Under the pieces are notes generated by a model. It was not told the origin of the DNA. It ran no database searches and worked only from the letters and a program-made list of their open reading frames with translations. A DNA stretch of 64,000 bases, taken from Patescibacteria group bacterium. Lineage in GTDB: Bacteria > Patescibacteriota > Patescibacteriia > UBA1558 > GWA2-36-10. Within the stretch, counting starts at the first letter, position 1; every line of letters starts with the position of its first letter. Below are positions 10,240 to 33,522 of the stretch, in pieces. A program made the translations under genes and the position numbers. The stretch is from positions 45,363-109,362 of the forward strand of contig JBAYIR010000003.1 in NCBI GenBank assembly GCA_041665505.1. Reading direction: 5' to 3'.

Positions 10240-11079
10240 TTGTGTTATAATATACACAAGTTAATAAATTGGATGACTGAAAAATTTGACAAAAATAATA
10301 ATCTGCAATCCCTAGATCAAGAAGCTCTAGTTGGCGACAATTATACCGCTAATTTAGACAAAGATAATCAGGCATTATACCCTACGCAAAAGAGCCATAA
10401 ACATCTAAAGTTTTGGTCTTTTTTAATTTTAGTAATTTTTATAATTTTTCTTAGTGGCTATCGTTTTTATAGTAATATTTTTGATCCTCTGAAGTATGAT
10501 GTACCAGATTGGCTAGCCAATCAAATAAGCTCAGAGGAGCAAGCAGCCAAAACCATTGCTGAGCTCAAAGAAAGTGACACTGATCAAGATGGTTTGACAG
10601 ATTATCAAGAAATTTATCAATACTACACTAGTATGTTTTTGCCAGATACTGATAGTGATGGTTTTACTGATGCCGAAGAGGTTAATCTTGGTCAAGATCC
10701 AGTTTGTCCAATTGGCGAGTCTTGTAATTTATTAAGATTGATTACTCCCAATACTAAATTATCTAGTATTATCCAAGATATTAATTTGGATGCTGATTTG
10801 ACTGTTCAAACAGCAGCGGTAGCAGAGTTTAGGAAATTTTTAGAAGCCAATGGTATGGATAAGGCGGAGTTAGACGCTCTGACAGATGAAGATCTTTTGG
10901 CCATTTTTAGGATAGTAGATGAAAGTAACATTTTAGATGGAGACCAGCTTAGTGCCAGTACTACGCCAGGTCAAATTAGGGAATTTTTATTGTTGTTACC
11001 CGGTGTTGATCCAGTAGAAATCAATGCCATGACTGATGAAGAATTAATAATTATTGCTGAGGATTTGATAGCCAAATAA
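10240..11079 (+). CDS. Membrane-anchored protein with thrombospondin type-3-like Ca-binding repeats and a tandem C-terminal repeat
   Basis: TM segment FWSFLILVIFIIFLSGY. Motifs DTDQDGLTDYQE and DTDSDGFTDAEEVNLGQDP. Repeated LTDEDLLAIF / MTDEELIIIA. Confidence 0.55.
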   Translation: MCYNIHKLINWMTEKFDKNNNLQSLDQEALVGDNYTANLDKDNQALYPTQKSHKHLKFWSFLILVIFIIFLSGYRFYSNIFDPLKYDVPDWLANQISSEEQAAKTIAELKESDTDQDGLTDYQEIYQYYTSMFLPDTDSDGFTDAEEVNLGQDPVCPIGESCNLLRLITPNTKLSSIIQDINLDADLTVQTAAVAEFRKFLEANGMDKAELDALTDEDLLAIFRIVDESNILDGDQLSASTTPGQIREFLLLLPGVDPVEINAMTDEELIIIAEDLIAK

Positions 11080-11099
11080 TAAAACAAGTAACATATAGT

Positions 11100-14000
11100 A
11101 TGAATAATTACAAAAAAATTATTTTAACCCTTTTTCTGGCCGGTTTTACTTTAATGGGAGTAGTCACCCCGCGGCCAGCTGATGCCCAATTTGCCGATGT
11201 TATTGGAGGACCAACCACCATCATCAAATATGTCTGGGAGAAAGTAGAAAAGGCTTATGATTTTGTCCAAGGTATAGTGGGAGCAGAACTTTCCAATAGG
11301 ACAGTGGGTATGTTTTTGGATTCCTTGGCTTATGATGTCGCCACTGAATTGGCTACTGGTGGACCAGGAGGTAAACCCCAATTTAGGACAATCTCTATAG
11401 AAAAAACTTTAGATAATGCTAGCCAAAAAGCCCTAGGAACATTTTTGGGAGAGTTGACCTCCAAGGGTTTTGATGAGTTGGGTCTTAATCTTTGTGATCC
11501 TTCTCTAGAATTAAAGTTAACTTTGACTTTAGGATTATTAGATGAAGATTCTCCTTCACCAAATACGCAACGAGGTTGCGAGTGGAGTAGTTTGCAAAAA
11601 AATTGGGCAGATTTTGGTGATAATGTCCAAGCTGATATTATAAAATTTCAATTAAATCCTGTGCAAAGTGGTGTAACTAGTACCTCACAGTATGCTAAGG
11701 GCATGTATTCTAGTATCTCTAATTTTTTCCGTGGTGTAGCTTCTCAGAAGGGCTCAGATTTAGGTATCGCTTTTGAATTGGATGCAGAATTAAATCAAAG
11801 AAAATTAGAAGCCGAAAAAGCTTTGGAATTATCTATTGAAGAGTGCCAAGGTTTTATTGACAAAAAAACAGCTGTGACTCAAGAGGTCATTACTCATTGT
11901 TCAGTTACTCATAGCATGGCAGAAAATTTGTTTGTCAATGCTACAGAAATAGAAGCAGCTAAACAGCTAGCTAGAAAAGAAGCTGCTTCCAATAAAAAAT
12001 TATCTGATATTTTGAAAGATGCTGGTAATAGATTCCTTAATACCTTTACTTCTAAGTTGATGAAAAACTGGATTAAAAAAGGTATGTGGTCTTTATTTGG
12101 TAATACAGAAAATGACATTTATCAGGATTATAGAAATACTTTGATTGATAGGCTAAGAGGTGGATCAGATGTCAGACAGCCTAGGGGAGCAGATATTTTC
12201 AAAGATATTAAAACAGTCAATATTGAGACATTGGAGTCTTTTGATTATTTAAATGACTTTACTATTTGTCCAAATGAATTTAGAAAACCAGACAATTGTG
12301 TCATGAGTCCAGCTTTTTTGACGGCTATAAATAATAAGATGAGCATCAAACAAGCCATTGAACAAGGCATCATTGATGGTCGAATATCTTTTGTTAGCCC
12401 CAATGATGCTATCAATCACACAGTTGATAAATGTTATCGAGATGGGCTTTGTTATTCTAATCTACTCAAATTAAGAAAGGCCAATATGATTCCAGTTGGT
12501 TGGGAGTTGGCTGCTTTGCGGGCTCCAGTATCATTACAGCAAGCGATTGATTGTTTTGAAGAAAATTCCAAGTGTGGTTTTGATCGTTTACCAGAATATG
12601 CAGTGGATGGTAACCCCCACAATCCATTTTATCATTTAGTAGATCCAAATTGGGTCTTAAAAGCACCTGATGTTCGTTGTGACGCTTATTCTTTTTCGGC
12701 TGTTTTGGAATCTCCGGAAAGTAGTAGTCGTCAACAATATTGTGCTGACCCAAAAATATGTTTGCGTGAAGATGCAGATGGTAATTGTTTAGATGACCAA
12801 TTTAATTATTGTACGCGTACTGAAAATAGCTGGAATTTTCAAGGTGATGCTTGCGGTGCGGGTGGAGTTTATGCTGGTTGTTTGACTTTTGCCAATGCGG
12901 ATTTTGGTAATAATTCTTATATTGAAGATAGTCTTGAATATTGTAATTCCAATCAAGCTGGTTGTCGTCGTTATTCTCAAGAAAAAGATGCTAATGGCAA
13001 TTGGGTTTTAGAGTCTATTAGTTCTGATCCTAATGATTTGTTTTTAAATAATCAAGCCACAGAGTGTATTGAAGAAAATGCTGGCTGTAGCGAATATATT
13101 GCTATGGCGGCTGATACAGGGACCAATTTAGTATCAAACGGTAGTTTTGATAATTTGGACGCTGATGTCAGCGCGGCTTTTCCTGATGGTCGGCCAGATG
13201 GTTGGATAAATGATATAACAACATTTGAGGGTGATGGTTATGATTATGATGGTGATTGGCTAGCCAATGGCTATCCTTGGGGTGGAGGAGCTGTTGGTAC
13301 AGAAGGGATTTATCAATTAGTACCTTTGGTGCCAAACACTAGTTATAGAATTACAGCTTCCGCTGCTCGTTATAATCCAGCTGTAGCTTCAGTCGGTAGA
13401 ATATCAATATTATTGTGTGACATTACAGGGGATTGTGGTAATAGTAGTGAATCTAAACCTTTGGCTTTAACTGGTCCAGGGTATTGTACTATACCAAATC
13501 CAGGTGATAACAATCCTAACCTGAATATTAATCCAACAGATGGAGAGATGCTTAAAGCGAGCTGTACATTTACTACTAATGGGGCAGCGATTGGAGAAGC
13601 TCGTTTACATGTGGTCTCTGACGGTACACATATCAGTTGGTTTGATGATATAAAAGTAGAAATGATAAGTGATGCTAGCCAGCATATAGATGGGCAGTAT
13701 TCTGATTATGGTGATGGTAGTCGTATTTATATGGACAATGCGGCAGTAATGTGTTCAGCTGATGAAGTAGGCTGTCAGGGTTATTTACCAGTAAGTGGCG
13801 ATCCGATGATCCCAGCGGTTATTAGTCAAGGTGATTTGTGTCCAGCTGAATGTCTAGGTTATGACACCTTTACTGAACAGCCAAATACATTTGATGTGAT
13901 AGAACATCCTACTCATAATCCTTTGGTTGAATATTATAATTTTATACCTGATACTACACAGCAGTGCCCTGACCAAGAAGTGGGTTGTGAAGAGTTTACT

Positions 14001-17000
14001 AATCTTGATGTGGTAGCTGAAGGTGGGGAAGGCAGAGAATATTTTACTTATCTAAGACAGTGTGTGGAGGAGAGCTTGGGAGAAATTTATTATACTTGGG
14101 AAGGTACAGAAGTGTCTGGTTATCAAATAAAGACTTGGTATGCTTTACCAAGTAGCATTAGCGATGCTCCTTGTACCAACATGGCTCCCGAAGGTAGTGC
14201 TTGTCAGGATACCGCTGCCAATGTAGCATCTTGTGGTCCGGACACAGCTGATATATCAGATGATCCAGAAAACAATCCAAATTGTCGAATGTTTTTTGAT
14301 GTCAATGACGCGGTGCATTATAGATTACAAGACAGAATTATTTTTGCTACTAGTAATTGTCATGATTATCGTCGAGCATTAACCAATCAAGTTTATAAAG
14401 CAGTGCCAGACGAGAGTATTCATTGTGCGGCCGCCAATAATGGTTGTCGGTCTTATTATGGTAATGATGCCAATAATATCCGTCTAGCCACCTCAGACAA
14501 TTTTGAGCAAGGTACTTATGAACCTTGGTTTGGTGTCGGTGGGGGCAGTCTAGTTGATTTGTCTAATATATCTTTGAATAATAATGGTCATTCTCTGAAA
14601 GCAGAAACAGGTGATGTTTTTGCTCGTGATATGAGAGAAGCATCTATACAAGATAATAAAGAGTATGTATTTTCTTGGTGGATGAAAAGTGATGCCTTGA
14701 TAGAAAATCTTTATATGCACATGCAAGGCAACGATAGCGGAGGAGGAGTTTATAATCAAGAATTTATAAATCCAGCCACCGATAGTAATTTTCAAAATAT
14801 TGAAGCCGGACGTTGGCATTATTATGTGACTTCAGTTTATATAGATAATTTGGATGCTTTGGATATGGATTTGATACAAGAACTTGAACTTCAAATCAGG
14901 ACAGAAAGTCCTTTAGCTAATTTGGGCTTGTATATAGATAATTTTATAATCAAAGAAGTAGCTAATAATTTCTCGGTAGTGAGAAATTCTTGGGAGACTC
15001 CAAGATCTTGTGATGATCCTTATAATGGCTATCATTTGGGTTGTCAGGCCTATACAGATCTTAATGGACGAAACTTTAATTTAAAATCATTTGATCATTT
15101 GTGTCGAGAAGAGGCTATTGGTTGTATGCCGGTTATTGGTACAAATAATTCTACTTATCCTTTTACAGAAACTTTCCATAGTGGTGATTATTCACAAATT
15201 ACTGTCGCTACCGATAATATGGCTTACTTGGTGCCAAATCCAAATAACTACTGCCCGCAAGAGTTCAAGGGCTGTACTGAACTTGGTACACCAGATAGAT
15301 TGGATGAGACAAAATTCTCAACAATTTATAAGATAAATGATCCAGATAAATATGCTTCTATATTATGTAGTGCAGAGGGTTTAAATTGTGCAGAGTATGA
15401 TACAGCCAAAGGCATGCTTTATTTTAAAGATCCAGGAGCCAATACCTGTACTTACCAACAAAATACTCTAATTGATAATAGTTTATTATCTGGGTGGTTT
15501 AAAACTAGTAGTTTAGGAGAAGTTGTGCCACTAGGTTGTGCTGATACCGACAATAATACCGATACCAATGGTGATGGTTTCTATGATGTGGAAGAATTGA
15601 TATTACCTAAAGATTATTGTAGCGTTTCAGCTAGCAATCCGACTCAATTACCTTTTTTCACTAGGGACGATTGTGAAAATAATAGTGGTTATTGGAATAA
15701 TTATTTAGCGGCTGCCCAGTGTCCAACTAATGAAAATCTATGTACTTCCTTTAGAGATCCAGCTGATCCCATAAATTGTGATGTTAAAGGTAAAAATTTA
15801 GACGTTGGCGATACTTGTAGCTCTAATTTGTATGATGATAGTGCATCTTGTACGGCAGCTGGTTTTGTCTGGACTATGGAAAGCCGAGATGGTTATTGCT
15901 ATGACGATGACTATAATGATAACGATAGCTATAATAATGAGAGAGACTGTCTAGCCGCTGGCCGTGTTTGGACACCATATTGTCGAGATTACTATTATTA
16001 TGATAATGAAGCTATAGATGAGAGCTCTTGTAATGGTTTAGCAGACAGAAATAATGGTTGTGTATTATTTTTTGATGCTAATAATTGGACAGGCGAACAC
16101 AATCAAGTGCGCACTATATATGATACCAATGAGACTTATGAAGATGTAGAAGTCTCCAATAGACCAGCCAGTCCAGTAGTTTGTGATCCTAGTTTTGACC
16201 CAGCTTGTAAATTGACGGCTAATAAATTAATCAAAGTAGTCAAAGACAGGCAATGTTCAGAATGGCTAGCTTGTAAATCTTCTACTGCTTCTTATGATTC
16301 AAAAACTGATGAGTATAAGATTATTTGTGATGAGTTGGATACTTGTCTAGAATTTCAATATGATCCAGATAGTAATACTACCAAGTGTAAAAAATGGGGT
16401 AGCTATGATGAAGATGTTGAGGCTTTGACTTTTGAGAAATATCAGTCTCGTAATACTGGTCTAAGAGACCATGTTTCCTGGAGTGATAAAGAATATACTG
16501 GATATTCAATACCAAATATGTTGCCAGTTAGTGAATTATCTGTTTATGATTTTGGTCAAGCTACAAACAAAACTACTCGTTTAGTTTACAATGTATCTGA
16601 TAGCGCTGATGCCGAGGGTGTATATTATTCAGGCTGTGTAGATGCAGCTGGAGATGCTATAGATGGGCAAGCTTGCACCGCCGTAATCAACACTGACGGA
16701 GTCTATAATTTTAGAGGTGAATGCCAACAGCGTATTTGTTGGGTCAGTCCAAAAGTCAATGATAATGCCACTACTACCTATGCTATAGAGTCTAGAGCTT
16801 ATGCTATTACTGATGCGCCATTCCCAGCCGCTATTGAATCCAATGGAGTAGATAGATTATCCAAGTACAAGATGGCTAATATTTGTAGTAATAATGCCAC
16901 TAGTCCAAATTCTTGTGAATTATCTTTCAAGCGAGTAACTTTTGGTTTTGGTGGACAAATATTTTATTATCCAGAAGAACTTTCTAGTGGAGAAATACCA

Positions 17001-19769
17001 ACTGGTATTTGTACAGCTGGTGTCACCACTGAGGGAGTAGAAAGAACCACCAAAACTTGTGTAAAAAATTCTGAATGTGATTCTAAAAATGATGATGGCA
17101 GCTCAAGAGGGGACGGTTCTTGTGCTTTGAGGACAGAGGAAATAGTCTTTAGAAATTGGCCAGGTATTTGTTTGGAATATGATTTAGATAATCCAGTGAC
17201 CAAAGATATAGCCAATTCATATTATTGTAATCAATGGTACCCAGCACAAAAAATAAAAGGTACGGCTAGTCTTTTTGATAATTATCGGGATGCTGGCTAT
17301 TATGATGTTTATGGACGGGATGCTTTATTTTGTGCCGTAGCTGAACCTTATGTCACCACTGAAGATAGATTTTATTGTGGTTACTTTACTACTTCTGGTG
17401 AAGCTGGACAGTGTAATGTTTTGATGAAGATACCAGCTGGTTCAAAGATTAATCTAGAAATGGCTTCTCAGTATATTGAATTGTTAGATGAAGGCTCTTG
17501 GTTAGAAGAGGGAGCTGGTTTTTCTATCTGGGCCGCGGCTAACAATAATGTACATAGAGATATTATTTTGCCACCAGGGGGAGGATTTGGAAATAAATTT
17601 AATAGGTTTGAGCATTTTGGTAATGTTTTACCAAACGTTACTGATTTTATGGGTATTATTAATCAGATGTTTGATGCTACCGAAGTTTATGTAATTCCTG
17701 GTAATGTTGCCTCAGGTCGGGTTAATGTGCATCGTTTTTATTATGATGATGATGTTACAGCTGGCGGTTCCACAAGCTACTCTTCATATTTGAATATTTC
17801 TGGAGCTACTACTTATCAGCAATCAGATCAGTGTCAAGATTGTCCAGCTCCAGCTTCTTGTGGTGCAAATGGTCATTTAGTTTATAATACTTGTTGGAAA
17901 AATACTCATTGCGGTTGGCATATGTGGCGTCATACTGGTACTTGGTGTAATCCTTATACTTATAATTATTATGTTGATTTAAATACTAGTGCTAGTGGCC
18001 CCATAGTACCAGAAGTACCAGCACCGGTATATGAAGGTAGTTGTTCGCCAGATTGTAAATTTATCAATAATACTATATTAGATTCCAATCATGGTCGAGG
18101 ATGCTTGCAAGCACCAGCTAATACCTTAGCTTATGAGCCAATGTTAGTAGCTTATGCTAGTTCTACTTTGCCAGGTGATTTTGATTTGGCCGCTTGCTTA
18201 GCTAACGCCACAACAGATCCAGAAGACTGTAATTTTATTAGTTGTGTGCAAAATTTAAATATTGCCAATCAAAATAATAGCCATCTTTGTGCTGATTACG
18301 GCCTTTGTTTGCAAAATACTATGGAAGCAAATGCCCCCTATACTTCTACAACTAGTGCTTGGATGCAGGAAGATATAAATAGATGTTTTTATACTGCTAA
18401 TGGTACTGAATTAGGGCCTTTATCAATGTATGATCCAGCTGAAGAGGAAATTTGTTTAGCACAAAATGAACGTGATTTTACCGACCGTTGGTCAGGCGAA
18501 TTAGATGAGGAGGGTTTAAATGCTTATTGTTCTAAGTGTGTCTATGTCCCTGCCCCAGTGACGCATTCTACTTTAGCTAGCGGAGTTAACTGCGCTTTTG
18601 ATGGTTTAGATTATGATCCTTTAAGATGTTATCAGCAGTGTCGTATAGTCACTCAATTGGATAGTGAAGGACTTTTGTCAGCAGTGCGAACTGATATTTG
18701 GTGGAGAAGTGATAAGACAAATACTAGAGTGCGACCAGCTTTTCCTTGGATCTCTTATTATTGGGCTCCCGGTAGAGGCTATGTGACCAATACACCAGCT
18801 ACTGTTGGTGATGACGAAGTGCTATTTCACAATATTGCTACTTTTCCAGCTCCAGAGGGAGATTATCCAAATAATTTTTCTCATTTTGGAGCCGGTTTAG
18901 ATGTGTTTGATATGGATAGAATAGTGTCTACCAGAGTGCCATATTATAGAGCTAGCCCAGACAATATTACGGCGGCTACTTTCTTTAGTAATTTAGAGGC
19001 ACCGCTGACTTTAGAGCAAGCTTTAGATAGAGCTAAATTGGAAATGCAAGATATATTTTTTAGAGTTTACAATTTGGATTGGGTAGCGGCTAGTAGCTCT
19101 TATGAACATTATGCGGAAGCTGATGTAAATACCAAATTATCTGGTGGCAATCATAGTAATACTTTTGCTGGCCCAGATTATGTGCCACGTATTTTTACTA
19201 CTTGTGGTGATAGACTTTGTGAAACATTGGACGTCGATGGTAATGTCATAGCAGTACAAGAAGGTGTTACAGTCAATGGTGTAACTGGTGGTACTTTGTT
19301 TGGTCAAAATTCTTCTTTATTCACTAGCGCTAAATTTTTCTATCATGCTCATCCAGATCACATGCCAGTTTATAGTATTGATGTAGATTGGGGAGATGGA
19401 GTGGTCAATAATTTTGCACTGAGCCCAGGTAAATATAAGAATTCATTACCAGCTGATTATTGTAATCCAGATTTGGATGTCCCCGGTGATGCCAACCCAG
19501 CTACCGCGGCTAGAGAACCTCAAAAACTTGGTTTTGGTGGGGAAGATGCCACTTGTCAGCCTGGCTATAAGATATTTTATCATGACTATATCTACGATGA
19601 GACTAGAGCCCATGATTGTAATGGTAGTGCTGGTGGTGCGGCTGGTACACCTCCTAAACCAATAATACTAAATGCTTCATGTTATCAACCTCGTGTCAGG
19701 GTGATGGACAATTGGGAATGGTTTAGTATGGAGCCTTTCAATGGTTGGTTGGTTGTTTATGATAGTTAA
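11100..19769 (+). CDS. Giant (2889 aa) secreted cysteine-rich surface protein; possible adhesin or T4SS-associated protein
   Basis: Uninterrupted 8.67-kb ORF. N-terminal signal peptide (MNNYKKIILTLFLAGFTLMGVVTPRPADAQ). Well over 100 Cys in recurring C..C modules. An internal TSP3-like DTDNNTDTNGDGFYD motif. Host-like composition. Confidence 0.8.
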   Translation: MNNYKKIILTLFLAGFTLMGVVTPRPADAQFADVIGGPTTIIKYVWEKVEKAYDFVQGIVGAELSNRTVGMFLDSLAYDVATELATGGPGGKPQFRTISIEKTLDNASQKALGTFLGELTSKGFDELGLNLCDPSLELKLTLTLGLLDEDSPSPNTQRGCEWSSLQKNWADFGDNVQADIIKFQLNPVQSGVTSTSQYAKGMYSSISNFFRGVASQKGSDLGIAFELDAELNQRKLEAEKALELSIEECQGFIDKKTAVTQEVITHCSVTHSMAENLFVNATEIEAAKQLARKEAASNKKLSDILKDAGNRFLNTFTSKLMKNWIKKGMWSLFGNTENDIYQDYRNTLIDRLRGGSDVRQPRGADIFKDIKTVNIETLESFDYLNDFTICPNEFRKPDNCVMSPAFLTAINNKMSIKQAIEQGIIDGRISFVSPNDAINHTVDKCYRDGLCYSNLLKLRKANMIPVGWELAALRAPVSLQQAIDCFEENSKCGFDRLPEYAVDGNPHNPFYHLVDPNWVLKAPDVRCDAYSFSAVLESPESSSRQQYCADPKICLREDADGNCLDDQFNYCTRTENSWNFQGDACGAGGVYAGCLTFANADFGNNSYIEDSLEYCNSNQAGCRRYSQEKDANGNWVLESISSDPNDLFLNNQATECIEENAGCSEYIAMAADTGTNLVSNGSFDNLDADVSAAFPDGRPDGWINDITTFEGDGYDYDGDWLANGYPWGGGAVGTEGIYQLVPLVPNTSYRITASAARYNPAVASVGRISILLCDITGDCGNSSESKPLALTGPGYCTIPNPGDNNPNLNINPTDGEMLKASCTFTTNGAAIGEARLHVVSDGTHISWFDDIKVEMISDASQHIDGQYSDYGDGSRIYMDNAAVMCSADEVGCQGYLPVSGDPMIPAVISQGDLCPAECLGYDTFTEQPNTFDVIEHPTHNPLVEYYNFIPDTTQQCPDQEVGCEEFTNLDVVAEGGEGREYFTYLRQCVEESLGEIYYTWEGTEVSGYQIKTWYALPSSISDAPCTNMAPEGSACQDTAANVASCGPDTADISDDPENNPNCRMFFDVNDAVHYRLQDRIIFATSNCHDYRRALTNQVYKAVPDESIHCAAANNGCRSYYGNDANNIRLATSDNFEQGTYEPWFGVGGGSLVDLSNISLNNNGHSLKAETGDVFARDMREASIQDNKEYVFSWWMKSDALIENLYMHMQGNDSGGGVYNQEFINPATDSNFQNIEAGRWHYYVTSVYIDNLDALDMDLIQELELQIRTESPLANLGLYIDNFIIKEVANNFSVVRNSWETPRSCDDPYNGYHLGCQAYTDLNGRNFNLKSFDHLCREEAIGCMPVIGTNNSTYPFTETFHSGDYSQITVATDNMAYLVPNPNNYCPQEFKGCTELGTPDRLDETKFSTIYKINDPDKYASILCSAEGLNCAEYDTAKGMLYFKDPGANTCTYQQNTLIDNSLLSGWFKTSSLGEVVPLGCADTDNNTDTNGDGFYDVEELILPKDYCSVSASNPTQLPFFTRDDCENNSGYWNNYLAAAQCPTNENLCTSFRDPADPINCDVKGKNLDVGDTCSSNLYDDSASCTAAGFVWTMESRDGYCYDDDYNDNDSYNNERDCLAAGRVWTPYCRDYYYYDNEAIDESSCNGLADRNNGCVLFFDANNWTGEHNQVRTIYDTNETYEDVEVSNRPASPVVCDPSFDPACKLTANKLIKVVKDRQCSEWLACKSSTASYDSKTDEYKIICDELDTCLEFQYDPDSNTTKCKKWGSYDEDVEALTFEKYQSRNTGLRDHVSWSDKEYTGYSIPNMLPVSELSVYDFGQATNKTTRLVYNVSDSADAEGVYYSGCVDAAGDAIDGQACTAVINTDGVYNFRGECQQRICWVSPKVNDNATTTYAIESRAYAITDAPFPAAIESNGVDRLSKYKMANICSNNATSPNSCELSFKRVTFGFGGQIFYYPEELSSGEIPTGICTAGVTTEGVERTTKTCVKNSECDSKNDDGSSRGDGSCALRTEEIVFRNWPGICLEYDLDNPVTKDIANSYYCNQWYPAQKIKGTASLFDNYRDAGYYDVYGRDALFCAVAEPYVTTEDRFYCGYFTTSGEAGQCNVLMKIPAGSKINLEMASQYIELLDEGSWLEEGAGFSIWAAANNNVHRDIILPPGGGFGNKFNRFEHFGNVLPNVTDFMGIINQMFDATEVYVIPGNVASGRVNVHRFYYDDDVTAGGSTSYSSYLNISGATTYQQSDQCQDCPAPASCGANGHLVYNTCWKNTHCGWHMWRHTGTWCNPYTYNYYVDLNTSASGPIVPEVPAPVYEGSCSPDCKFINNTILDSNHGRGCLQAPANTLAYEPMLVAYASSTLPGDFDLAACLANATTDPEDCNFISCVQNLNIANQNNSHLCADYGLCLQNTMEANAPYTSTTSAWMQEDINRCFYTANGTELGPLSMYDPAEEEICLAQNERDFTDRWSGELDEEGLNAYCSKCVYVPAPVTHSTLASGVNCAFDGLDYDPLRCYQQCRIVTQLDSEGLLSAVRTDIWWRSDKTNTRVRPAFPWISYYWAPGRGYVTNTPATVGDDEVLFHNIATFPAPEGDYPNNFSHFGAGLDVFDMDRIVSTRVPYYRASPDNITAATFFSNLEAPLTLEQALDRAKLEMQDIFFRVYNLDWVAASSSYEHYAEADVNTKLSGGNHSNTFAGPDYVPRIFTTCGDRLCETLDVDGNVIAVQEGVTVNGVTGGTLFGQNSSLFTSAKFFYHAHPDHMPVYSIDVDWGDGVVNNFALSPGKYKNSLPADYCNPDLDVPGDANPATAAREPQKLGFGGEDATCQPGYKIFYHDYIYDETRAHDCNGSAGGAAGTPPKPIILNASCYQPRVRVMDNWEWFSMEPFNGWLVVYDS

Positions 19770-19797
19770 TTTATAGATTAATTTTCAGTAAATATAT

Positions 19798-22700
19798 ATG
19801 AAGTTTAAAAATTATAAACTAGTGAGCAAATGGCCATATTTGGCAACAATTTTTGCTTTAATTGTTGTTGTACCAATGAAAATTTCAGCCATATCTCCCT
19901 TGGTCAAACTCTTGGTTCAACCAATTTGGAATTTCTTTGTCTGGCCACTGACTTGGACCATTCAATTGGAGATGGAGCTTTTGCGTTTGGTAGCTAGGTA
20001 TAATAATTTTACTAACGAAGGAGGAGTAATGCTTGGTTGGATAGCACTTAGAGATTTATCCAATATGTTTTTTATTCTGATATTACTAGTTATTGCTTTT
20101 GCTACCATACTGAGAATTTCCAATTATGGTTACCAACAACTTTTGAAGAAAACTTTTATTATTGCTATTTTGATAAATTTTTCCAAGACCATTGTCGGTT
20201 TTATGATTGATGTGGTTCAAGTAGTGATGTTGACTTTTATCTCAGCTATAGATGAAGTGATGGCTGGGGGAGTAGTAGTAGCTATTGGTTTACATAAATT
20301 AACTCAAATTCAATTACCGGGAGACGGTGTACCGATGGAGGATTATGTTTTAGCTTTGGTTATGGGGGCAGTTTTTTTGGCTATTTTGGTGGTAGTGATG
20401 GGAGTGATGGTGATGATGCTAATGATGAGGATTGTGGCTTTGTGGGTAGCCATTGTTTTGGCTCCCTTGGCTTTTGTGGCTAGCATTTTTCCAGCTACCA
20501 AGTCTTTTTATTCTAGATGGATAAAAGAACTAGGCACCAATTTGGTAACTGGTCCGATGTTGGCGTTTTTTATGTGGCTGACTTTTACTATTGTCGGAAA
20601 TGGTGAGGCCTATCGTACTTTTTTAAATGATAATCCATCCATGCCAGGGCCAACAGAATTTTTGGGTACAGCCAATATGGTCAATTATGTAGTGGCTATT
20701 TCTTTGCTACTAATGGGTATCAAGATGGCTTCGGCTTCTGGAGCAGCAGGAGCTAGTTTTGCCGCCAAAGGCATGGGTATGATCAATAATACGGCTAGTA
20801 AATTGGCTAGGCGTTATCCAATGGCTGTTGGTAAGAGATTAGCTAACTGGGCTGCCGGCGGGGTGGTAGATAAAGATGGCAAGGCTAGGCCTTTATTACA
20901 GATGGGTGCAAATAGAATTATTAATAGTCGTTTGGGTAAAAGAATGAATTTAACTGAACGTGCTACAGATTTTAGTGAACGAGCGGATAGTTTACGGGCT
21001 TCAAATAATATATTGGCTCAGGCAGCTGGTAGAACTATGACTGGAGCAAGGGATTTCCAATGGAATAGAATTCCATTTTATGGTGGCAGAGTTCAACGTG
21101 GAGCTATGAAGGCTCAAGGTAAATATAGTGCTATGGTTGATGAATTTCAAGCTGAAGATGAGAAATTTATTAATCCAAAACAAAGAGAACAATTTGAAGC
21201 ATCTCAAGATAATGTTAAAGGCGGACCAAAATTTTTGTCCAGAGTGCCAATATTAAATCGGTCCAGACGTTTACGAGAGCTAGGTTTGGGTGATGCGGCT
21301 GGCAATGTTACTTCTTTAGGTGGAAATGCTGATAGGCGGGTGATGCAATCTAAAACTAAATTAGATAGAGGTGATATAGCAGATCAGGCAGAGGCAGATT
21401 TTGTTGCTGAAAATTTAGAAAGAGTTAATGATCAGTCAAGACTTGATAAATTGCATAAACAATGGGGTAGTACTTATAGGGATAAGGCAGATGTTGATAA
21501 GGATATAAATCAAGATGGTATTCAATCATTACTACGTGATCAAAAAGCTGATGCAGCTATTGATCCAGAGACTGGCTTGCCATATGAAGGAAGTAGATTA
21601 TTAATAGAAGGAGCTTTTCGTGATACTGACTCCGTAGGTTTGGATATTGGTAAAGCAATTTTATCAAAATTTAAAACAGCTAGAGTAGCCTGGTCAAAAG
21701 CTTTGGCACATGTTGCTCAAACTATGGGACACACCATGGAGCGAACAGAAGAGAATTTAAAAAATTATGGCACAGTGGCTGCTACAGAAATAAACCCAGC
21801 TACTGGCATGAGGGAAATTGGTTTTAATAATAAAAGTGTAGTAGAATTAAATGCTTATCATCCTATGGTTAAAGCTGTAGGATCAACTACTCAAGTTTAT
21901 CCTCAACAGGCAGTCAATCCATATAATGAGGCTATGGACCATCTAGAGCAAGGGGTAATTGATGGTTTTTATAATTTTGATGCCGCGTCTATAAATTATT
22001 TAAAACAAAGGTCTAAAGAGCCTGATAAGGATTTTGAAGTTAGAAAAAAAGCGGCTACAGATTCTTGGGAGCAAAATACAGCTTCTTTTGAGGCTGGGCA
22101 TATTACTGCAGAAGAGATGTATAAACACAGACGTCAAACCCTTGGTGTTTATACACCAGAGGAGATAGAAACTGAAGCTGCACCAATTAGAGCTAGAATG
22201 CAAAATTTAGAGGCCGGTCGAGCTAGTGGTAGTATTAGTGAAGAGCAATATAATGATGATTTAGAAATAGAGAAAAAAGCTTTGAAAGACTTATATGATT
22301 CTCCTATAGCACGTATAGCTGGAAATTCAGATGATATTGAATTAGCTATGCAAATTAGTAGCCGTTTGCCAGATAAACCAATTAGAGGCACAGCTCAATT
22401 AGAAAAGGTTGAAGATGCAGAAATTGAAGAAAAGACTAAGAAAAAGGTATCAGAAATATCCGAAACAGAGATAACTAAGAGAGTGAAAGCTAGCGGACAA
22501 ACATTCACTGATCCTGTAAATGAGAAACAGGCCAGAGCACGAGTCCGTCAGGATATGGAAGAAGAGATAAGAGGAAAAACACGTGATAGTTTGGTTCAAG
22601 AAAAAGGCACTAAGAGAGATGAAGAGCAAAAAAAGATAGATGATAAATATAATAAAGATTTAGCTAATTATAATACTGAAAGAGATGCTCTGAGACGCAC

Positions 22701-23274
22701 GATTGGAGAAGCTTTAACTAGTATAGCCAAAGATAAAGATGCTACTAGATTAGGTAATATACAAGTAGAAATTGATGGGGCTAGAAGTAGTAATGATACT
22801 GACAGATTGGCTAAATTATTAGCTGAACAAAATACCTTAACTAGATTACAAAATACTAAACGTCGAGAAGCTTTAGGTTTGGCTACGCCTAATACTAAAA
22901 ATATTTTTTCTCGAGCTTTATTAAAAGATGCTACAGACGGGGCAGATTATTCTAGGCTACAGGAGATGGATATTAATGTTGAATCGGAAAGACATTTATT
23001 TATAGAGTTAGCCAAAGTAGCTACTCCAGATCAACAAAGGCAGTTATTTCAAGAGGCTAACCCGGATCAACTTAAACTATTTGCTGAAGTTTTAGCTAGC
23101 ACCGGGCAAAAGTTGAATAAAGTTATTGTCGATAATTTAACTCCAGCGGTGAAGAAGGAGATATTTAGAATGATGCATACAATTAAGCTTACACAAGAAG
23201 GAGTTATGTCAGCGATAGAGATTAAGGAGTTTGTAGCTAAGATGACAGATGAACAATTAGCTAAGATCAAATAA
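19798..23274 (+). CDS. VirB6/TrbL-like polytopic membrane protein with a ~800-aa charged, coiled-coil-like C-terminal tail
   Basis: N-terminal ~330 aa contain 7 or more hydrophobic helices, including a Met/Val-rich helix (GVMVMMLMMRIVALWVAIVLAPLAF) reminiscent of VirB6/TrbL/PrgH. The remainder is K/E/R/D/Q-rich and low in hydrophobics. Confidence 0.5.
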   Translation: MKFKNYKLVSKWPYLATIFALIVVVPMKISAISPLVKLLVQPIWNFFVWPLTWTIQLEMELLRLVARYNNFTNEGGVMLGWIALRDLSNMFFILILLVIAFATILRISNYGYQQLLKKTFIIAILINFSKTIVGFMIDVVQVVMLTFISAIDEVMAGGVVVAIGLHKLTQIQLPGDGVPMEDYVLALVMGAVFLAILVVVMGVMVMMLMMRIVALWVAIVLAPLAFVASIFPATKSFYSRWIKELGTNLVTGPMLAFFMWLTFTIVGNGEAYRTFLNDNPSMPGPTEFLGTANMVNYVVAISLLLMGIKMASASGAAGASFAAKGMGMINNTASKLARRYPMAVGKRLANWAAGGVVDKDGKARPLLQMGANRIINSRLGKRMNLTERATDFSERADSLRASNNILAQAAGRTMTGARDFQWNRIPFYGGRVQRGAMKAQGKYSAMVDEFQAEDEKFINPKQREQFEASQDNVKGGPKFLSRVPILNRSRRLRELGLGDAAGNVTSLGGNADRRVMQSKTKLDRGDIADQAEADFVAENLERVNDQSRLDKLHKQWGSTYRDKADVDKDINQDGIQSLLRDQKADAAIDPETGLPYEGSRLLIEGAFRDTDSVGLDIGKAILSKFKTARVAWSKALAHVAQTMGHTMERTEENLKNYGTVAATEINPATGMREIGFNNKSVVELNAYHPMVKAVGSTTQVYPQQAVNPYNEAMDHLEQGVIDGFYNFDAASINYLKQRSKEPDKDFEVRKKAATDSWEQNTASFEAGHITAEEMYKHRRQTLGVYTPEEIETEAAPIRARMQNLEAGRASGSISEEQYNDDLEIEKKALKDLYDSPIARIAGNSDDIELAMQISSRLPDKPIRGTAQLEKVEDAEIEEKTKKKVSEISETEITKRVKASGQTFTDPVNEKQARARVRQDMEEEIRGKTRDSLVQEKGTKRDEEQKKIDDKYNKDLANYNTERDALRRTIGEALTSIAKDKDATRLGNIQVEIDGARSSNDTDRLAKLLAEQNTLTRLQNTKRREALGLATPNTKNIFSRALLKDATDGADYSRLQEMDINVESERHLFIELAKVATPDQQRQLFQEANPDQLKLFAEVLASTGQKLNKVIVDNLTPAVKKEIFRMMHTIKLTQEGVMSAIEIKEFVAKMTDEQLAKIK

Positions 23275-23284
23275 TTTATTTTAA

Positions 23285-24544
23285 ATGTTAATCAATGATT
23301 TAAAAACTCTACCCGAAGAAGTACAGGATTTTATTTGGGAAACTATGTCAGATGTAAATTATACTATATTTGATAAGTTTTCTTTTGATTTTGCGCAATT
23401 TGAATTTTTTAATAAATTGGAAGATGATATTTTATTGAAGAAAAAAAATATCATTGATTTGCCCAAAGATTTAGAAAAAATGCCTGGTCAGTTCAAAGGG
23501 GACTTTAGGGAGCTGGCTTTACAAATGGCTACAGAAATATTTTGGCCCTTACAGGAATATCTAGGCGGAGTAGATCGTCTCATTTTACGCTTAGGTGCCA
23601 AAGTGCCTAGGGCAGTTTTTTTGAAGAAAAAAAATACTACGGTAGTTGATAATCAACTACCAGAAGTTTTTCAAGGTAGGGTCAAAGACTTAATGGAAAA
23701 GTATGAAGAATTTAAAGACCTGCGTTTAACACCCAATAAATTGGTCAATGAAAAAGGCCTAATGGTCAATGCTAGCGTGCAAAATTGGATTAATGATTAT
23801 ATTCATTTTTTGGGAGCTGGTCAGCATAATTCTTTAGAAAGAGCAGTTTATCTTTCTAAAAGTCCAAATGTTTTGGAGTTGACTGATAAATATAGAGATA
23901 GTTTGCGTTATTTATTATTATCTTATGATGAGGGAGTAGAACTTTATTTTAATTATTCACAGGGCTTTTTGTTTATAGAGGAACAGCCAACCAAAAAATC
24001 CACAGATAAAGAAGCTATTTCCAATAAAATGGATTTCGATAAATTTTTAGGAGCTTTTAAAAATAAATTAACAACTTTTCAAAAACAACTTTTGCCTAGT
24101 GACATGATAATATCTGAATCCCAAGGAGATATTAATAAAGTTAGAGATATTCTTTGGCAGGCGATTGGTATTTCTGACAAAGACAAAGCAATTAGTTGTT
24201 TAAAACTCTTGGTGGAGAGGAAAACTCTTGATTTGATGATTAAAGAGGATAATAGGTTTAAAAATACTTTAAAGAGGTTTATTGGTATTAAATATGGTCA
24301 AAACATGGAAAGGTCTTTGGCTGAAAATATAGACCAATTGATAATTAGGCGTCTTTTTTTGGAAATGATTTTGTCTGATAAGTTGAGATTATCTGAAGAA
24401 GAACTTTATGTCACTGTTTTTTATCTGACTAATATTTTGCCAAATTCAGGACAGCTAATATATCTAGATGAAAAAGATCAAAAATTCAAATGGCGAGCTG
24501 TTCAAGTCAGTGGTAATAAATTTGCTTGGGTAGATAAAATATAA
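23285..24544 (+). CDS. Hypothetical protein (419 aa), co-oriented with the giant protein and VirB6-like genes
   Basis: Long ORF with host-like composition, 10-nt gap from the upstream gene; no motif recognised. Confidence 0.55.
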   Translation: MLINDLKTLPEEVQDFIWETMSDVNYTIFDKFSFDFAQFEFFNKLEDDILLKKKNIIDLPKDLEKMPGQFKGDFRELALQMATEIFWPLQEYLGGVDRLILRLGAKVPRAVFLKKKNTTVVDNQLPEVFQGRVKDLMEKYEEFKDLRLTPNKLVNEKGLMVNASVQNWINDYIHFLGAGQHNSLERAVYLSKSPNVLELTDKYRDSLRYLLLSYDEGVELYFNYSQGFLFIEEQPTKKSTDKEAISNKMDFDKFLGAFKNKLTTFQKQLLPSDMIISESQGDINKVRDILWQAIGISDKDKAISCLKLLVERKTLDLMIKEDNRFKNTLKRFIGIKYGQNMERSLAENIDQLIIRRLFLEMILSDKLRLSEEELYVTVFYLTNILPNSGQLIYLDEKDQKFKWRAVQVSGNKFAWVDKI

Positions 24545-27887: not shown

Positions 27888-29294
27888 ATGGATTCTTCAA
27901 ATAATAAAGTAAATGATATTTTAGACACTGCTAATTGGTCTGATGCTCTTTTAGTTAAAGATGCCAAAGGCAATTTAGGGTCTTTAAAACTGGTTCTAAA
28001 AGATAATTCTCCTAAAATTTCACCCTCAATTAATGCTGTTTCTGAAGGTAGTTTGGCTCCTAAAGACGCTAGTTTCGCTCCTTCACAAAATATTATTGGT
28101 AATTCTCAGACTAAATCAGAGCTGGTTTTTCACCCAGATGATAAAGAAGAACTAGATTTTTTTGCTCAAAATATAGTCAAAGATGATAGTAAAAAATATA
28201 GTGTTGAGAAAATAGTAGACCGTATTATTGCCAAACAATCTTTGGATTTGGATGAGAAAAATAAAAAGATTTTCGTTAATATTTTGTACAATTTTTTTAG
28301 AAATAGAAAAAGTACAATTATTACCAGAGAGCTTTTGACAAATAGTGTCTTGATAAAAAACAAAAAAATAGATACTGAAGTAATTGATATCATTTTGTCT
28401 GTTATCAAAGGTATTAAAAATAAAATTGATGCTGTTGGTGGTTTGGTGGTCAATCAAACTGAGCTAAAAATTGAGCAAAATTTATCAAGCGCCAAAGAAA
28501 AAAAACATCTTTTACAGACTCCACCAGTTTTAGTCAAGCCGTTTAGCCAAGAAGAAAAGATTTTAGATTTGGAAGATTCAAAAGACAGCTCATTATCAGC
28601 TCAAGATGAAGTCAAAATGGCGCTCGGTCAGTTACAGCCAACAGTAGTAAAGGAAAGCAAGGTAGAAACCAAAGCGCCAGTTGTCAAAGCGCCAGCCGCT
28701 GGATTTTCTATTCCGGCTCCTCTTGAAAAGTTATCTAAACCAGATAAACCTGAGCTAAAAGAAGAAATTATAAAACCAGTTGCTCAGCCAGAAATTAAAG
28801 CTAGCTTAGTAGTGCAACAAGATGAGCCAGAGCTAGCCAAAGTGGAAACATCGCTACCAAAAGTATTAAGATCAAACCTAAATCAAACGCCCAAAAAACC
28901 AATTAGCGACGTAGTCAGCCCCATCAAAGAAGTCAAAAAACCAAACATCCCAGTAGGAGCAAAAAATGTTTTAATGGGGGCAGTACAAGAATTACAATCA
29001 TTTGATTTAGTTGGTTTTCGTCGTTTGGGTAGTACAGCCAATGAGCGTGTTCAGAAAATATTTGATAAAATAAATTTATTAGAACAAGAATCATATACTA
29101 AAAAAGCTCAAGGTATTGCTGCTTGGAGAGATAGTGAAGTCTATAAATTATATTTACAATTAGGCACGGAGAGTATGATAGCTGGCCAAGAAGTAGCCAA
29201 TTTTATACTGGAGCGCCAAAGTAAAAATCAAAATACACTTAGTATAGAAGAGTTTTCAGCTATCTCGGATTTAAACAAACAATTAAGATTTTAG
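27888..29294 (+). CDS. Hypothetical soluble protein with Lys/Pro-rich low-complexity central region; first gene of the T4SS-like operon
   Basis: 468-aa ORF, no TM. Central PKVLRSNLNQTPKKP / KEVKKPNIP region. A 3-nt gap to the next gene suggests co-transcription. Confidence 0.6.
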   Translation: MDSSNNKVNDILDTANWSDALLVKDAKGNLGSLKLVLKDNSPKISPSINAVSEGSLAPKDASFAPSQNIIGNSQTKSELVFHPDDKEELDFFAQNIVKDDSKKYSVEKIVDRIIAKQSLDLDEKNKKIFVNILYNFFRNRKSTIITRELLTNSVLIKNKKIDTEVIDIILSVIKGIKNKIDAVGGLVVNQTELKIEQNLSSAKEKKHLLQTPPVLVKPFSQEEKILDLEDSKDSSLSAQDEVKMALGQLQPTVVKESKVETKAPVVKAPAAGFSIPAPLEKLSKPDKPELKEEIIKPVAQPEIKASLVVQQDEPELAKVETSLPKVLRSNLNQTPKKPISDVVSPIKEVKKPNIPVGAKNVLMGAVQELQSFDLVGFRRLGSTANERVQKIFDKINLLEQESYTKKAQGIAAWRDSEVYKLYLQLGTESMIAGQEVANFILERQSKNQNTLSIEEFSAISDLNKQLRF

Positions 29295-29297
29295 TTT

Positions 29298-29774
29298 ATG
29301 CCAGAAAGGTTTATAGTGCCACAATTTATAGATGCCGAAGATAAAATCTGGGGACCAATTACTGTTCGTCAATTTGTGATTATATTGGTTGGTTTACTTT
29401 TTGGATTTATTGCTTATAAACTTTCAGATTTAACTTTGTTTATTTTCTGGATGGTGATCATTGTGATTTTTGTAGTGTTATTTGCTTTTTATAAAATCAA
29501 TGGAGCACCTTTCCATATTTTTGCTATCAATTTTATTGAAACCACTTTTAAGAAACCGGCTCTTCGTGTTTGGCATAAACAATATGTTAAAGTAGAAAAA
29601 GTTAAATCAAAAGATGAAATGCAAGTCAAAGAAGGTCCAGTGGCCCCCAAAAAGATTGCCTCTAGTCGGAAATTATCAGAGCTTTCTTTGATTATTGATA
29701 CCGGAGGGGTATATAAAGGAGAAAGACGAGCTAATGAAGAAAATAACGTTAGTTTTTCAGATAAAAATATTTGA
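29298..29774 (+). CDS. PrgI/VirB3-like small two-TM T4SS protein
   Basis: N-terminus FIVPQFIDAEDKIWGPITVRQFVIILVGLLFGFIAY matches the PrgI-family pattern (..P.d.d..edki.g.lt.RQ..yl). Two adjacent TM helices. It sits immediately upstream of VirB4, as in Gram-positive T4SS. Confidence 0.6.
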   Translation: MPERFIVPQFIDAEDKIWGPITVRQFVIILVGLLFGFIAYKLSDLTLFIFWMVIIVIFVVLFAFYKINGAPFHIFAINFIETTFKKPALRVWHKQYVKVEKVKSKDEMQVKEGPVAPKKIASSRKLSELSLIIDTGGVYKGERRANEENNVSFSDKNI

Positions 29775-29809
29775 TATTTTAGTGAACTCAATATAAATTA
29801 TAAATTACT

Positions 29810-30490
29810 ATGAAAAGTAAAAAATTAACTGGTAACCAAGCAGCTACAGCCACTCAAAAATATTTAGATATTGCTGAGATTAGAGATGATTTGGTAGTTT
29901 TAAATGACGGCACAGTCCGAGGAGTTTTATTGGTGGCCTCTATAAATTTTGATTTGAAATCAGAAGATGAACAAAGGGCTATTATTGGTAATTATGTTAA
30001 TTTTTTAAACACCCTAGATTATCCATTGCAAGTTATTATACAATCTCGCCCTTTAAATATTGATGACTATCTTGTTAGATTAAAAAAGATGGAAAGGGAG
30101 CAAACTAATGAATTATTGCGCATGCAGACCGCTGATTATAGAGGTTTTGTGGAAGAACTACTAACTTTAGAAAAGATAATGAGTAAGAAATTTTATGTAG
30201 TAGTCCCTTATAGTGCGCTCAGTGATAAAAGAATAAACTTTAAAAGTCGTTTTGCCTCTGTTTTTTCTCCTGCTAAAATAGTTAGTTTGAGTCGCAAACG
30301 TTTGGAAGAATTTAGTGATCAATTAGAAAAGAGATGCAATTTTATTGGAGCGGGTTTGGGTAGTTTGGGCTTAAGGAGCCAGCGTCTTAGCACTCAAGCT
30401 TTGATTGAGCTATATTATAATAGTTATAATCCAGAGTTATTTCAAAAACAACCAATGGATGATATAAATAAATTAACCATCGAAACATAA
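29810..30490 (+). CDS. VirB4/TraC-family N-terminal domain encoded as a separate ORF (split VirB4, part 1)
   Basis: LVVLNDGTVRGVLLVASINFDLKSEDEQRAIIGNYVNFLNTLDYPLQVIIQSRPLNIDDY is the conserved VirB4/PrgJ/TcpF N-terminal block. Its stop TAA overlaps the next ATG (TAATG at 30488-30492). Confidence 0.7.
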   Translation: MKSKKLTGNQAATATQKYLDIAEIRDDLVVLNDGTVRGVLLVASINFDLKSEDEQRAIIGNYVNFLNTLDYPLQVIIQSRPLNIDDYLVRLKKMEREQTNELLRMQTADYRGFVEELLTLEKIMSKKFYVVVPYSALSDKRINFKSRFASVFSPAKIVSLSRKRLEEFSDQLEKRCNFIGAGLGSLGLRSQRLSTQALIELYYNSYNPELFQKQPMDDINKLTIET

Positions 30491-32415: not shown

Positions 32416-32471
32416 ATTTAATATTATTTATATAAATTATATTTTATTCCAGCATAAATTAATAAAAAAAT

Positions 32472-33023: not shown

Positions 33024-33036
33024 TTTTATTTAATTT

Positions 33037-33522
33037 ATGCCAGGAGGTTTTGATACGCCATTTGAACAGACCAGAGTCCAATTGCAGTTAGATGAGGAGG
33101 AACAAGCTCAAAATCCTGCCACCAAAGCTACGCAGGAAGCTTTTAGAAGGCGCTTGTTAGCCGAAAAAAAAGCTTTGAAAGAAAAAGCCACTGATGCAAT
33201 TAAAAAGAAATTAGCTCAGAAAGTAGGCACGCGTTTAGTTTTGCGGGTAGTAGGGGCAGCTTGTGCATCTTCCATAATATTTCTTATTGTTACTTGGCTT
33301 ATTTGGACAGTTCAAGCTTTGGCTGGTAATTTGATGGGTTCCAAGTGGATACCAGAATTGGAATGGTGGGAAATTATCCTTTGGGGCATATTGACCATTA
33401 TAATATTAGCCATTGTAATAATACTAATAACATTATCGTCAATAGCTATAGTATTTTCCAATCCACTTTTGGCTATTAGTATCTTGGGAACAATAATTTT
33501 TGAGGCGGTCACAGGTTCATAA
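33037..33522 (+). CDS. Small membrane protein (hydrophilic N-terminus plus 3 TM) in the T4SS-like operon
   Basis: 161 aa with a charged coiled N-terminus, then three hydrophobic helices. Confidence 0.5.
   Translation: MPGGFDTPFEQTRVQLQLDEEEQAQNPATKATQEAFRRRLLAEKKALKEKATDAIKKKLAQKVGTRLVLRVVGAACASSIIFLIVTWLIWTVQALAGNLMGSKWIPELEWWEIILWGILTIIILAIVIILITLSSIAIVFSNPLLAISILGTIIFEAVTGS

Follow-up and report, generated by a model that had tools for sequence, protein, structure and literature searches.

The window analyzed here is a stretch of 64,000 nucleotides from the genome of a Patescibacteria group bacterium, an ultra-small and host-dependent organism that is ABY1/Komeilibacteria-like (GenBank assembly GCA_041665505.1, contig JBAYIR010000003.1, positions 45,363 to 109,362 of the forward strand). 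The subject of this report is a run of genes on its plus strand that encodes a cysteine-rich exported protein of 2,889 residues, hereafter the giant protein, followed by a polytopic membrane protein (open reading frame 2, ORF2) and a soluble protein (ORF3). The three genes are separated by 28 and 10 nucleotides, respectively, and the gene of a small membrane protein with TSP3 repeats stops 20 nucleotides before the giant gene. Between ORF3 and the operon that contains virB4 lie a methyltransferase gene on the minus strand and then rpsF, ssb, rpsR and efp. We conclude that the region from position 10240 to 24544 is the upstream half of a single chromosomal type IV secretion system (T4SS), which is split by the methyltransferase gene and rpsF-ssb-rpsR-efp from the half that encodes PrgI, TrsD, VirB4 and the pilin. 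A preliminary description of this DNA had been made from the sequence alone. Its account of the giant gene (coordinates, length, signal peptide, number and recurring spacing of the cysteines), of the 28-nucleotide distance to ORF2 and the ORF of 419 residues downstream, of the multi-pass N-terminal part of ORF2 and of the genes that alone separate this region from the virB4 operon was reproduced in our analysis.

The giant protein contains 110 cysteines, which correspond to 3.8% of its residues. Successive cysteines are most commonly spaced 7 and 6 residues apart (C-x6-C and C-x5-C), and the motif C-x5-GC-x2-[YF] occurs at least seven times. The hydropathy profile of the whole protein displayed a single hydrophobic segment at residues 4–25 and no further transmembrane (TM) segment; A-D-A follows at residues 27–29, as is usual for Sec signal peptides. 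A protein search identified 55 homologues of 1,666–3,778 residues, which are 23–71% identical to the giant protein and for the most part full-length and collinear with it; every named homologue among these belongs to a Patescibacteria or Parcubacteria genome. In an alignment of 49 sequences, approximately 55 cysteines were invariant or nearly so, often in pairs 6–7 residues apart. When one genome per species was scanned, relatives were found in at least 579 genomes, with Komeili-, Uhr-, Falkow- and Nomurabacteria among the named ones. The profile built from the 385 N-terminal residues matched 1,474 clusters (50% identity) in a set of 1.84 billion representatives, and in the best 150 of these almost all proteins are 2,400–3,700 residues long, with the domain at the very N-terminus.

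The preliminary description had allowed for the possibility that the giant ORF is an artefact, for example of collapsed repeats. We consider an artefact of assembly or annotation, including a fusion of genes, practically excluded, since the homologues come from independent assemblies and the relatives from so many genomes, no DNA tandem repeats were found between positions 10000 and 25000, and invariant residues occur along the whole length of the protein. Nothing was found in favour of such an artefact, and an 8.7-kb frame without stop codons in DNA of 35–38% G+C is beyond what chance would be expected to produce. Thus, the giant protein is a real, exported protein of extracellular type.

The resemblance of ORF2 to VirB6/TrbL, as suggested in the preliminary description, was recovered only indirectly at the level of sequence. 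ORF2 itself did not match the Pfam family TrbL (PF04610) at E ≤ 0.1, and the profile of the ORF2 family matched no VirB6 chain among the PDB sequences; in PDB this profile matched only dynactin and similar proteins, through the tail and in the manner of coiled coils, and the TM domain alone yielded nothing relevant. However, five of the 434 ORF2 homologues (P0031, P0045, P0046, P0050 and P0074) passed the TrbL cutoff of 25.9 bits with scores of 27.7–33.0 bits. One of these, P0045 (32.6 bits), is 35% identical to residues 12–438 of ORF2 (E = 3e-75), which span the whole TM domain. By sequence, the membership of ORF2 in the TrbL family is thereby transitive only. In the Pfam and NCBIfam scans, ORF2 matched only GvpG and T7_gp14 (18.6 bits; cutoff, 27), both below threshold, and these matches were taken as noise.

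Structure prediction with AlphaFold2 (AF2) from 82 sequences gave a model of ORF2 with a mean predicted local distance difference test score (pLDDT) of 85.8, and of approximately 75–94 in the helices of the TM region. In a Foldseek search with this model, chains of the R388 stalk complex were the only ones to reach probabilities of 0.91–1.00. The closest structural relatives were the VirB6-type subunits in 7o3v (TrwJ/VirB5-TrwI/VirB6) and 9ngy (DotA-IcmX), at a sequence identity of only 10–15%. All hydrophobic segments of ORF2 lie within residues 7–316, and the polytopic domain is common to 120 of the 120 ORF2 homologues listed. The genes for PrgI and VirB4 start 6–7 kb after the ORF2 stop codon, and this linkage is repeated in relatives. 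Based on the homologues that pass the TrbL cutoff, the good AF2 model and the similarity in fold to solved VirB6 structures, we conclude that ORF2 is the VirB6 membrane subunit of the system, and of the "extended" type. Basic loops are located at residues 105–118, 229–247 and 314–360, and the positive-inside rule suggests an external N-terminus, approximately five TM helices and an internal C-terminus. This is also the topology reported for VirB6 of Agrobacterium.

Beyond its last TM segment, ORF2 continues for approximately 840 hydrophilic residues, and a hydrophilic extension of 450–900 residues was present in each of the 120 homologues. The preliminary description had called this tail charged and coiled-coil-like. 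The first part of that statement agrees with our analysis, in that K, R, E, D and Q make up 38% of residues 511–1158; the second part does not, in that AF2 modelled these approximately 650 residues as an ordered helical region rather than as a low-complexity, disordered or simple coiled-coil tail. The tail showed a weak resemblance to alpha-solenoids in the Foldseek search, and its column conservation is 0.1–0.25 even within the ORF2 family. From the distribution of charges, it is probably cytoplasmic.

The gene order around the giant gene is conserved and comprises genes for a major facilitator superfamily transporter, RsmA, the TSP3 protein, the giant protein, VirB6, a protein of approximately 415 residues, a methyltransferase on the minus strand, rpsF-ssb-rpsR-efp, and genes for a protein of approximately 450 residues, PrgI, TrsD and VirB4. 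The order in the window recurs unchanged in three related loci (L001–L003), and in relatives with VirB6 identities of only approximately 32–35% overall and 39–51% over the TM domain. In more distant lineages, the rpsF-efp block is inverted in five loci (L019, L022, L024, L026 and L078) and absent in seven others (L051, L055, L059, L060, L066, L070 and L074), in which the genes for the giant protein, VirB6, PrgI, TrsD and VirB4 form one cluster. Synteny was counted in 32 loci, each from a species representative, in which the giant gene is complete and the sequence continues for at least 9 kb downstream of it. A virB6 gene on the same strand was found downstream of the giant gene in 29 of these loci (within 500 nucleotides in 18), and a gene for PrgI, TrsD or VirB4 within 10 kb downstream in 22.

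No second VirB6 candidate was found in the operon at 27888–35553 or elsewhere in the window. The preliminary description had interpreted the giant gene and its neighbours as a second T4SS-related module, a view that we abandon: because the window holds no other VirB6, the gene order is conserved and the cluster is contiguous in distant lineages, the two groups of genes represent one T4SS. No T4SS-DNA_transf or relaxase family passed in the 27888–35553 operon, which thus displayed neither a coupling protein nor a relaxase.

Table 1. Features of the split T4SS locus, with positions in the window.
Feature	Position	Strand	Remarks
TSP3 bitopic membrane protein	10240-11079	+	279 residues as listed; start probably ATG at 10273
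Giant-protein gene	11100-19769	+	2,889 residues (8.7 kb)
Giant, signal peptide, residues 1-29	11100-11186	+	cleavage probably after A-D-A; A29 nearly invariant in two alignments
Giant, conserved N-terminal domain, residues 30-385	11187-12254	+	predicted helical; 4 Cys only; family signature
Giant, Cys-rich module I, residues 386-690	12255-13169	+	among the most conserved parts; R459, G467-W468-E469 and W518 invariant
Giant, variable beta-sandwich domain I, residues 691-870, CBM4/9-like	13170-13709	+	low conservation; hhalign
Giant, Cys-rich module II, residues 871-1125	13710-14474	+	C-x5-GC-x2-[YF] hairpin motifs
Giant, CBM_4_9 carbohydrate-binding-type domain, residues 1126-1295	14475-14984	+	Pfam PF02018
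Giant, Cys-rich module III, residues 1296-1500	14985-15599	+	invariant Cys pairs; hhalign
Giant, further Cys-rich region, residues 1501-2120	15600-17459	+	no Pfam match
Giant, most variable region, residues 2121-2520, Cys-rich	17460-18659	+	least conserved and least occupied part of the family alignment
Giant, conserved C-terminal region, residues 2521-2889, VDWGDG motif	18660-19769	+	no Pfam match
ORF2, VirB6-type	19798-23274	+	1,158 residues
ORF2, VirB6/TrbL-type polytopic domain, residues 1-320	19798-20757	+	N-terminal signal/anchor segment and approximately 5 TM helices
ORF2, basic linker, residues 321-510	20758-21327	+	net charge +16; lower-confidence model
ORF2, all-helical C-terminal tail, residues 511-1158	21328-23274	+	AF2 pLDDT 90-98
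ORF3	23285-24544	+	419 residues; soluble; conserved directly 3' of the VirB6 gene
468-residue soluble protein	27888-29294	+	first gene of the VirB4 operon
PrgI/VirB3	29298-29774	+	Pfam PrgI, 43.7 bits
TrsD/TraC-like protein, 226 residues	29810-30490	+	NCBIfam TrsD, E 1.7e-8
VirB4 ATPase, 641 residues	30490-32415	+	Pfam P-loop_TraG, 100 bits
Three membrane or exported proteins	32472-34758	+	within the VirB4 operon
VirB2-type pilin-like protein	34762-35553	+	weak matches only, E 0.033 and 0.0015

The layout of the giant protein was derived from the conservation along the family alignment and from profile-profile comparisons of its segments with hhalign. Module II was matched by module I with a probability of 82.6% and by module III with a probability of 65%, and residues 691–870 matched the CBM_4_9-bearing residues 1126–1295 with a probability of 84%. 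Thus, by profile comparison the three Cys-rich modules are mutually related, and the two beta-sandwich domains likewise. The match to PF02018 covers residues 1130–1243, with 29.2 bits when the full-length protein was scanned and 31.7 bits for a single tile (cutoff, 25.9), and marks a domain of carbohydrate-binding type. CBM_4_9 was present in 11 of 17 diverse homologues, in which the scan otherwise identified one Big_9 and one CBM58 match, and the tiled Pfam scan of the giant protein (E ≤ 1) gave nothing beyond CBM_4_9. Catalytic domains were found neither in the giant protein nor in the 17 homologues. Searches of the giant protein for Walker A, HExxH and LPXTG motifs were also negative; the only LPxxG sequence is internal, at residue 896, and there is no C-terminal hydrophobic segment.

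In the family alignment, residues 1481–1640 are variable and residues 1641–2120 are conserved, and the most variable region, residues 2121–2520, is a candidate for the part that determines specificity. The VDWGDG motif in the conserved C-terminal region may be reminiscent of PKD or Ig-like domains, judging from the motif only. The N-terminal domain is a candidate docking module. No relative of the giant protein was found in PDB by phmmer or profile searches, and a profile of 20 N-terminal domains gave no PDB match at E ≤ 10; the tiled Pfam scan (E ≤ 1) gave no match in the N-terminal domain. The AF2 model of residues 1–690, built from 27 sequences, had a mean pLDDT of 50 and was confident only for residues 385–520 approximately, with values of 78–89 over most of residues 401–520. 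The N-terminal domain was modelled as helical with low confidence (pLDDT approximately 35–66). A Foldseek search with the model of residues 1–690 gave no match above a probability of 0.10, which is uninformative for a model of this low confidence.

In some distant relatives, exemplified by locus L061, there are further Cys-rich ORFs between the giant gene and virB6, such as L061:23902-26193, which encodes 763 residues with 39 cysteines. These ORFs hint at additional Cys-rich components or paralogues. A minus-strand frame of 573 residues with 75 cysteines in the same locus (L061:20342-22063) may be spurious.

The TSP3 protein has one TM segment (residues 53–81) and an external C-terminal part with bacterial TSP3 repeats, which are of Ca2+-binding type (Pfam TSP3_bac, 32.9 bits at a cutoff of 25). 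A homologue is located directly 5' of the giant gene in nearly all of 78 related loci, and the protein is a candidate for a partner of the giant protein or for its tether to the membrane. Its weak match to Pfam TrbL (E = 0.058) lies over the single TM segment and was disregarded. A second stretch of TSP3-like repeats at nucleotides 2968–3111 matches the TSP3 protein (tblastn, E = 6e-5) and is located in an ORF of 543 residues (1774–3405, plus strand), in which no Pfam family was identified at E ≤ 1e-5. For ORF3, we found no TM segment and no match in Pfam, NCBIfam, PHROGs or PDB. Its 94 homologues, of approximately 410–420 residues, are all hypothetical proteins, every named one is from Patescibacteria, and a homologue follows virB6 in many lineages. 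PHROGs gave no match either for the TSP3 protein, the N-terminus of the giant protein, ORF2 or the 468-residue protein.

In the downstream half, the VirB4 function is split between the TrsD/TraC-like ORF and the ATPase ORF, which overlap by one base, and the split is kept in relatives. The best NCBIfam matches of the 226-residue ORF cover the N-terminal regions of VirB4-family models, and this partner corresponds to the TrsD component described previously (PMC12102498). The pilin-like protein has a C-terminal extension of approximately 110 residues with many cysteines, and Cys-rich exported parts are thus not confined to the giant protein.

Elsewhere in the window, an ORF of 1,175 residues (48553–52080, plus strand) lies in a stretch of 40–48% G+C, as compared to approximately 34% in the remainder. 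It encodes Peptidase_M23, four PKD domains, six LVIVD repeats and Por_Secre_tail, which is the C-terminal sorting domain of the type IX secretion system typical of Bacteroidota and is odd in a monoderm Patescibacterium. Genes for a serine recombinase and a C5 DNA methylase are located just 5' of this ORF (44708–47387), and a full-length Rfam LOOT RNA (RF03000, 89.4 bits at a gathering score of 46.4) just 3' of it (52312–52430, plus strand). The stretch has the appearance of an island gained by horizontal transfer or of a chimeric join. Further downstream (59310–62015, plus strand), a protein of 901 residues combines an unassigned N-terminal half of 500 residues with a RecD/TraA-like helicase C-terminal half (AAA_30, Viral_helicase1 and UvrD_C_2).

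Taken together, the balance of these results tips modestly towards a reading in which the region is the upstream half of the T4SS, the giant protein is a Sec-exported surface component that contacts the host, and ORF2 is a VirB6 with a cytoplasmic tail. The giant protein would be exported by Sec, fold oxidatively outside the cell and stay at the surface, retained through its N-terminal domain by the VirB6 platform, the TSP3 protein or both. Its disulfide-stabilized Cys-rich scaffold would then present the variable carbohydrate-binding-type domains to the host envelope, and the protein would serve as a host-contact or mating-pair-stabilizing element that enables the T4SS to engage its host. In the cytoplasm, the VirB6 tail could be a platform onto which the VirB4/TrsD ATPase, the conserved 419- and 468-residue proteins or cargo dock. 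The tail, ORF3 and the 468-residue protein may in this way organize the ATPase and cargo side of a system without a coupling protein. Disulfide-forming families (MdbA-like and VKOR) have been reported to be enriched in the candidate phyla radiation (bioRxiv 10.1101/335083).

Several observations count against this reading, among them the negative TrbL and PDB searches with ORF2 described above. The evidence for host contact consists of gene linkage and architecture, which makes the giant protein a candidate for this role; the model of residues 1–690 is poor and its fold search was empty, which leaves the docking onto VirB6 a conjecture. The housekeeping gene rsmA/ksgA is linked to the giant gene just as constantly as virB6, and part of the synteny may be plain genome collinearity; the presence of KsgA and RecG near virB4 has already been noted (PMC12102498). 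In the cultured Saccharibacterium Southlakia, the T4SS is essential and has no such giant protein (PMC10633639), and the giant protein is therefore not a universal T4SS component. With regard to ORF2, the model has a predicted template modelling score of 0.63, the high pLDDT of long helices is not proof of a compact fold, and the topology of the tail was deduced from the charge distribution alone.

The same linkage data bear on the alternative of a giant protein that acts generally in the envelope or at the surface (as an adhesin, an S-layer-associated or a matrix protein) and independently of the T4SS, in which case its adjacency to virB6 would reflect the gene order conserved in these small genomes. 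This would suit the linkage of rsmA and the TSP3 gene to the giant gene, which is at least as constant as that of virB6, the 2–9 kb of other genes between the giant gene and virB6 in several lineages, the 3 of 32 loci without virB6 within approximately 10 kb, and the example of Southlakia. However, the linkage of the giant gene to virB6 outlasts the inversion or loss of the rpsF-efp block and is kept in a locus that has no VirB4-type gene within 10 kb downstream (L004), and in the window and its closer relatives the genes are arranged as in an operon, on one strand and spaced by 10–40 nucleotides. We regard an independent surface protein as possible, but doubtful.

A sharper version of the host-contact idea holds that the giant protein is an extracellular conduit or cap, with its helical N-terminal domain mounted on the VirB6 oligomer in the way that VirB5 sits on TrwI/VirB6 of R388 and IcmX on DotA of Legionella. 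In canonical virB operons, virB5 is located directly upstream of virB6, and the giant gene is in the corresponding position immediately 5' of virB6. The protein is also exported by Sec and has no anchor, its helical N-terminal domain is conserved, and the closest structures to ORF2 are VirB6-type subunits solved together with such partners (7o3v and 9ngy). Nevertheless, the N-terminal domain resembles no Pfam or PDB entry by sequence or profile, its model is too poor for a fold comparison, and there would be no precedent for a pentameric cap with a subunit as large as 2,889 residues, which together make this version quite improbable. As a broader proposal, which we rate as unlikely, the giant protein may supply the extracellular part that the Patescibacteria T4SS has been missing. 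Its N-terminal domain would cap the VirB6 oligomer in place of VirB5 or IcmX, and its disulfide-locked body with the variable lectin-like domains would be the host-specific contact or conduit. If true, this would be a new architectural class of monoderm T4SS in which the variable domains predict the host range, and a conduit through which auxotrophic epibionts exchange macromolecules with the host.

The preliminary description had named the giant protein a substrate or adhesin, of which a surface adhesin or structural role is plausible from linkage and architecture; although the gene adjoins T4SS genes and carbohydrate-binding-type domains are often companions of wall-degrading enzymes, a substrate or effector (toxin or hydrolase) delivered by the T4SS is highly improbable, as the classical Sec signal peptide predicts export by Sec and not through a VirB4-driven channel, neither an effector or catalytic domain nor a HExxH or Walker motif was found, and the more than 100 cysteines, in conserved pairs, point to an extracellular scaffold made stable by disulfide bonds.

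The T4SSs of Patescibacteria are widespread and are essential in the one species tested, and their function has been called "completely unknown" (PMC11665869, PMC10633639). The locus in the window has the same core as these systems, which are related to the monoderm conjugation class of mating-pair formation type FATA (PMC12102498, PMC10633639), namely PrgI/VirB3, TrsD, VirB4, VirB6 and a VirB2-like pilin. It likewise contains no recognizable relaxase or coupling protein, and is chromosomal and near ksgA/rsmA and recG as reported for class ABY1. Unlike the published loci, its VirB6 half is split from its VirB4 half by housekeeping genes, and the locus is now readable as one T4SS divided in this manner. 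In the published surveys (PMC12102498, PMC10633639) we found no mention of the giant Cys-rich protein, the TSP3 protein or the 419-residue protein as members of the locus; the figures of the phylum-wide survey leave genes without profile matches grey (PMC12102498).

An extended VirB6 is a known kind of protein (PMC12857230). In Southlakia epibionticum, SEML1_0013 (1,088 residues) is essential, TrbL/VirB6-like and has an ARM-repeat C-terminus, and SEML1_0011 (998 residues) is similar to it (PMC10633639, Table S2). Both the Southlakia proteins and ORF2 combine a polytopic VirB6 domain with a large hydrophilic extension, and the tails are too divergent for a comparison of sequences. The RvhB6 paralogues of Rickettsiales and TraG of the F plasmid are also extended VirB6 proteins. 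The C-terminal domain of F TraG is periplasmic, whereas the ORF2 tail is predicted to be cytoplasmic.

In F-type systems, the Cys-rich surface protein TraN, in which a variable recognition part is combined with a conserved scaffold, pairs with TraG to stabilize the contact between cells. TraN is an outer-membrane protein of diderms with approximately 600–1,000 residues. The giant protein has 2,889 residues, belongs to a monoderm organism and shares with TraN only the richness in cysteines and the combination of a conserved scaffold with variable parts; no match to Pfam TraN was found in its tiles (E ≤ 1). Compared with VirB5 of R388 and IcmX of Legionella, the candidate partner of VirB6 in the window is Cys-rich and approximately 10 times larger than VirB5, with no similarity shown to either. 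TraN with TraG, VirB5 with VirB6, and IcmX with DotA are the closest functional analogies, none of them a demonstrated homologue of the giant protein.

Large exported surface proteins in a monoderm T4SS locus are also represented by the PrgB-type adhesins, from which the giant protein differs in that it has no C-terminal LPXTG signal and no Pfam domains in common with them. The phylum-wide survey detected no adhesins for the T4SSs of Patescibacteria, PrgB homologues included (PMC12102498), and the role of adhesin is therefore vacant. While the Patescibacteria T4SS, its VirB6 and the extended form of VirB6 are already published, the searchable literature yielded no account of the giant family or of the link between its genes and virB6. 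This family of exported, disulfide-rich and VirB6-linked proteins of 2,500–3,800 residues offers a testable candidate for how the T4SS meets the host cell, with its variable domains as candidates for host specificity.

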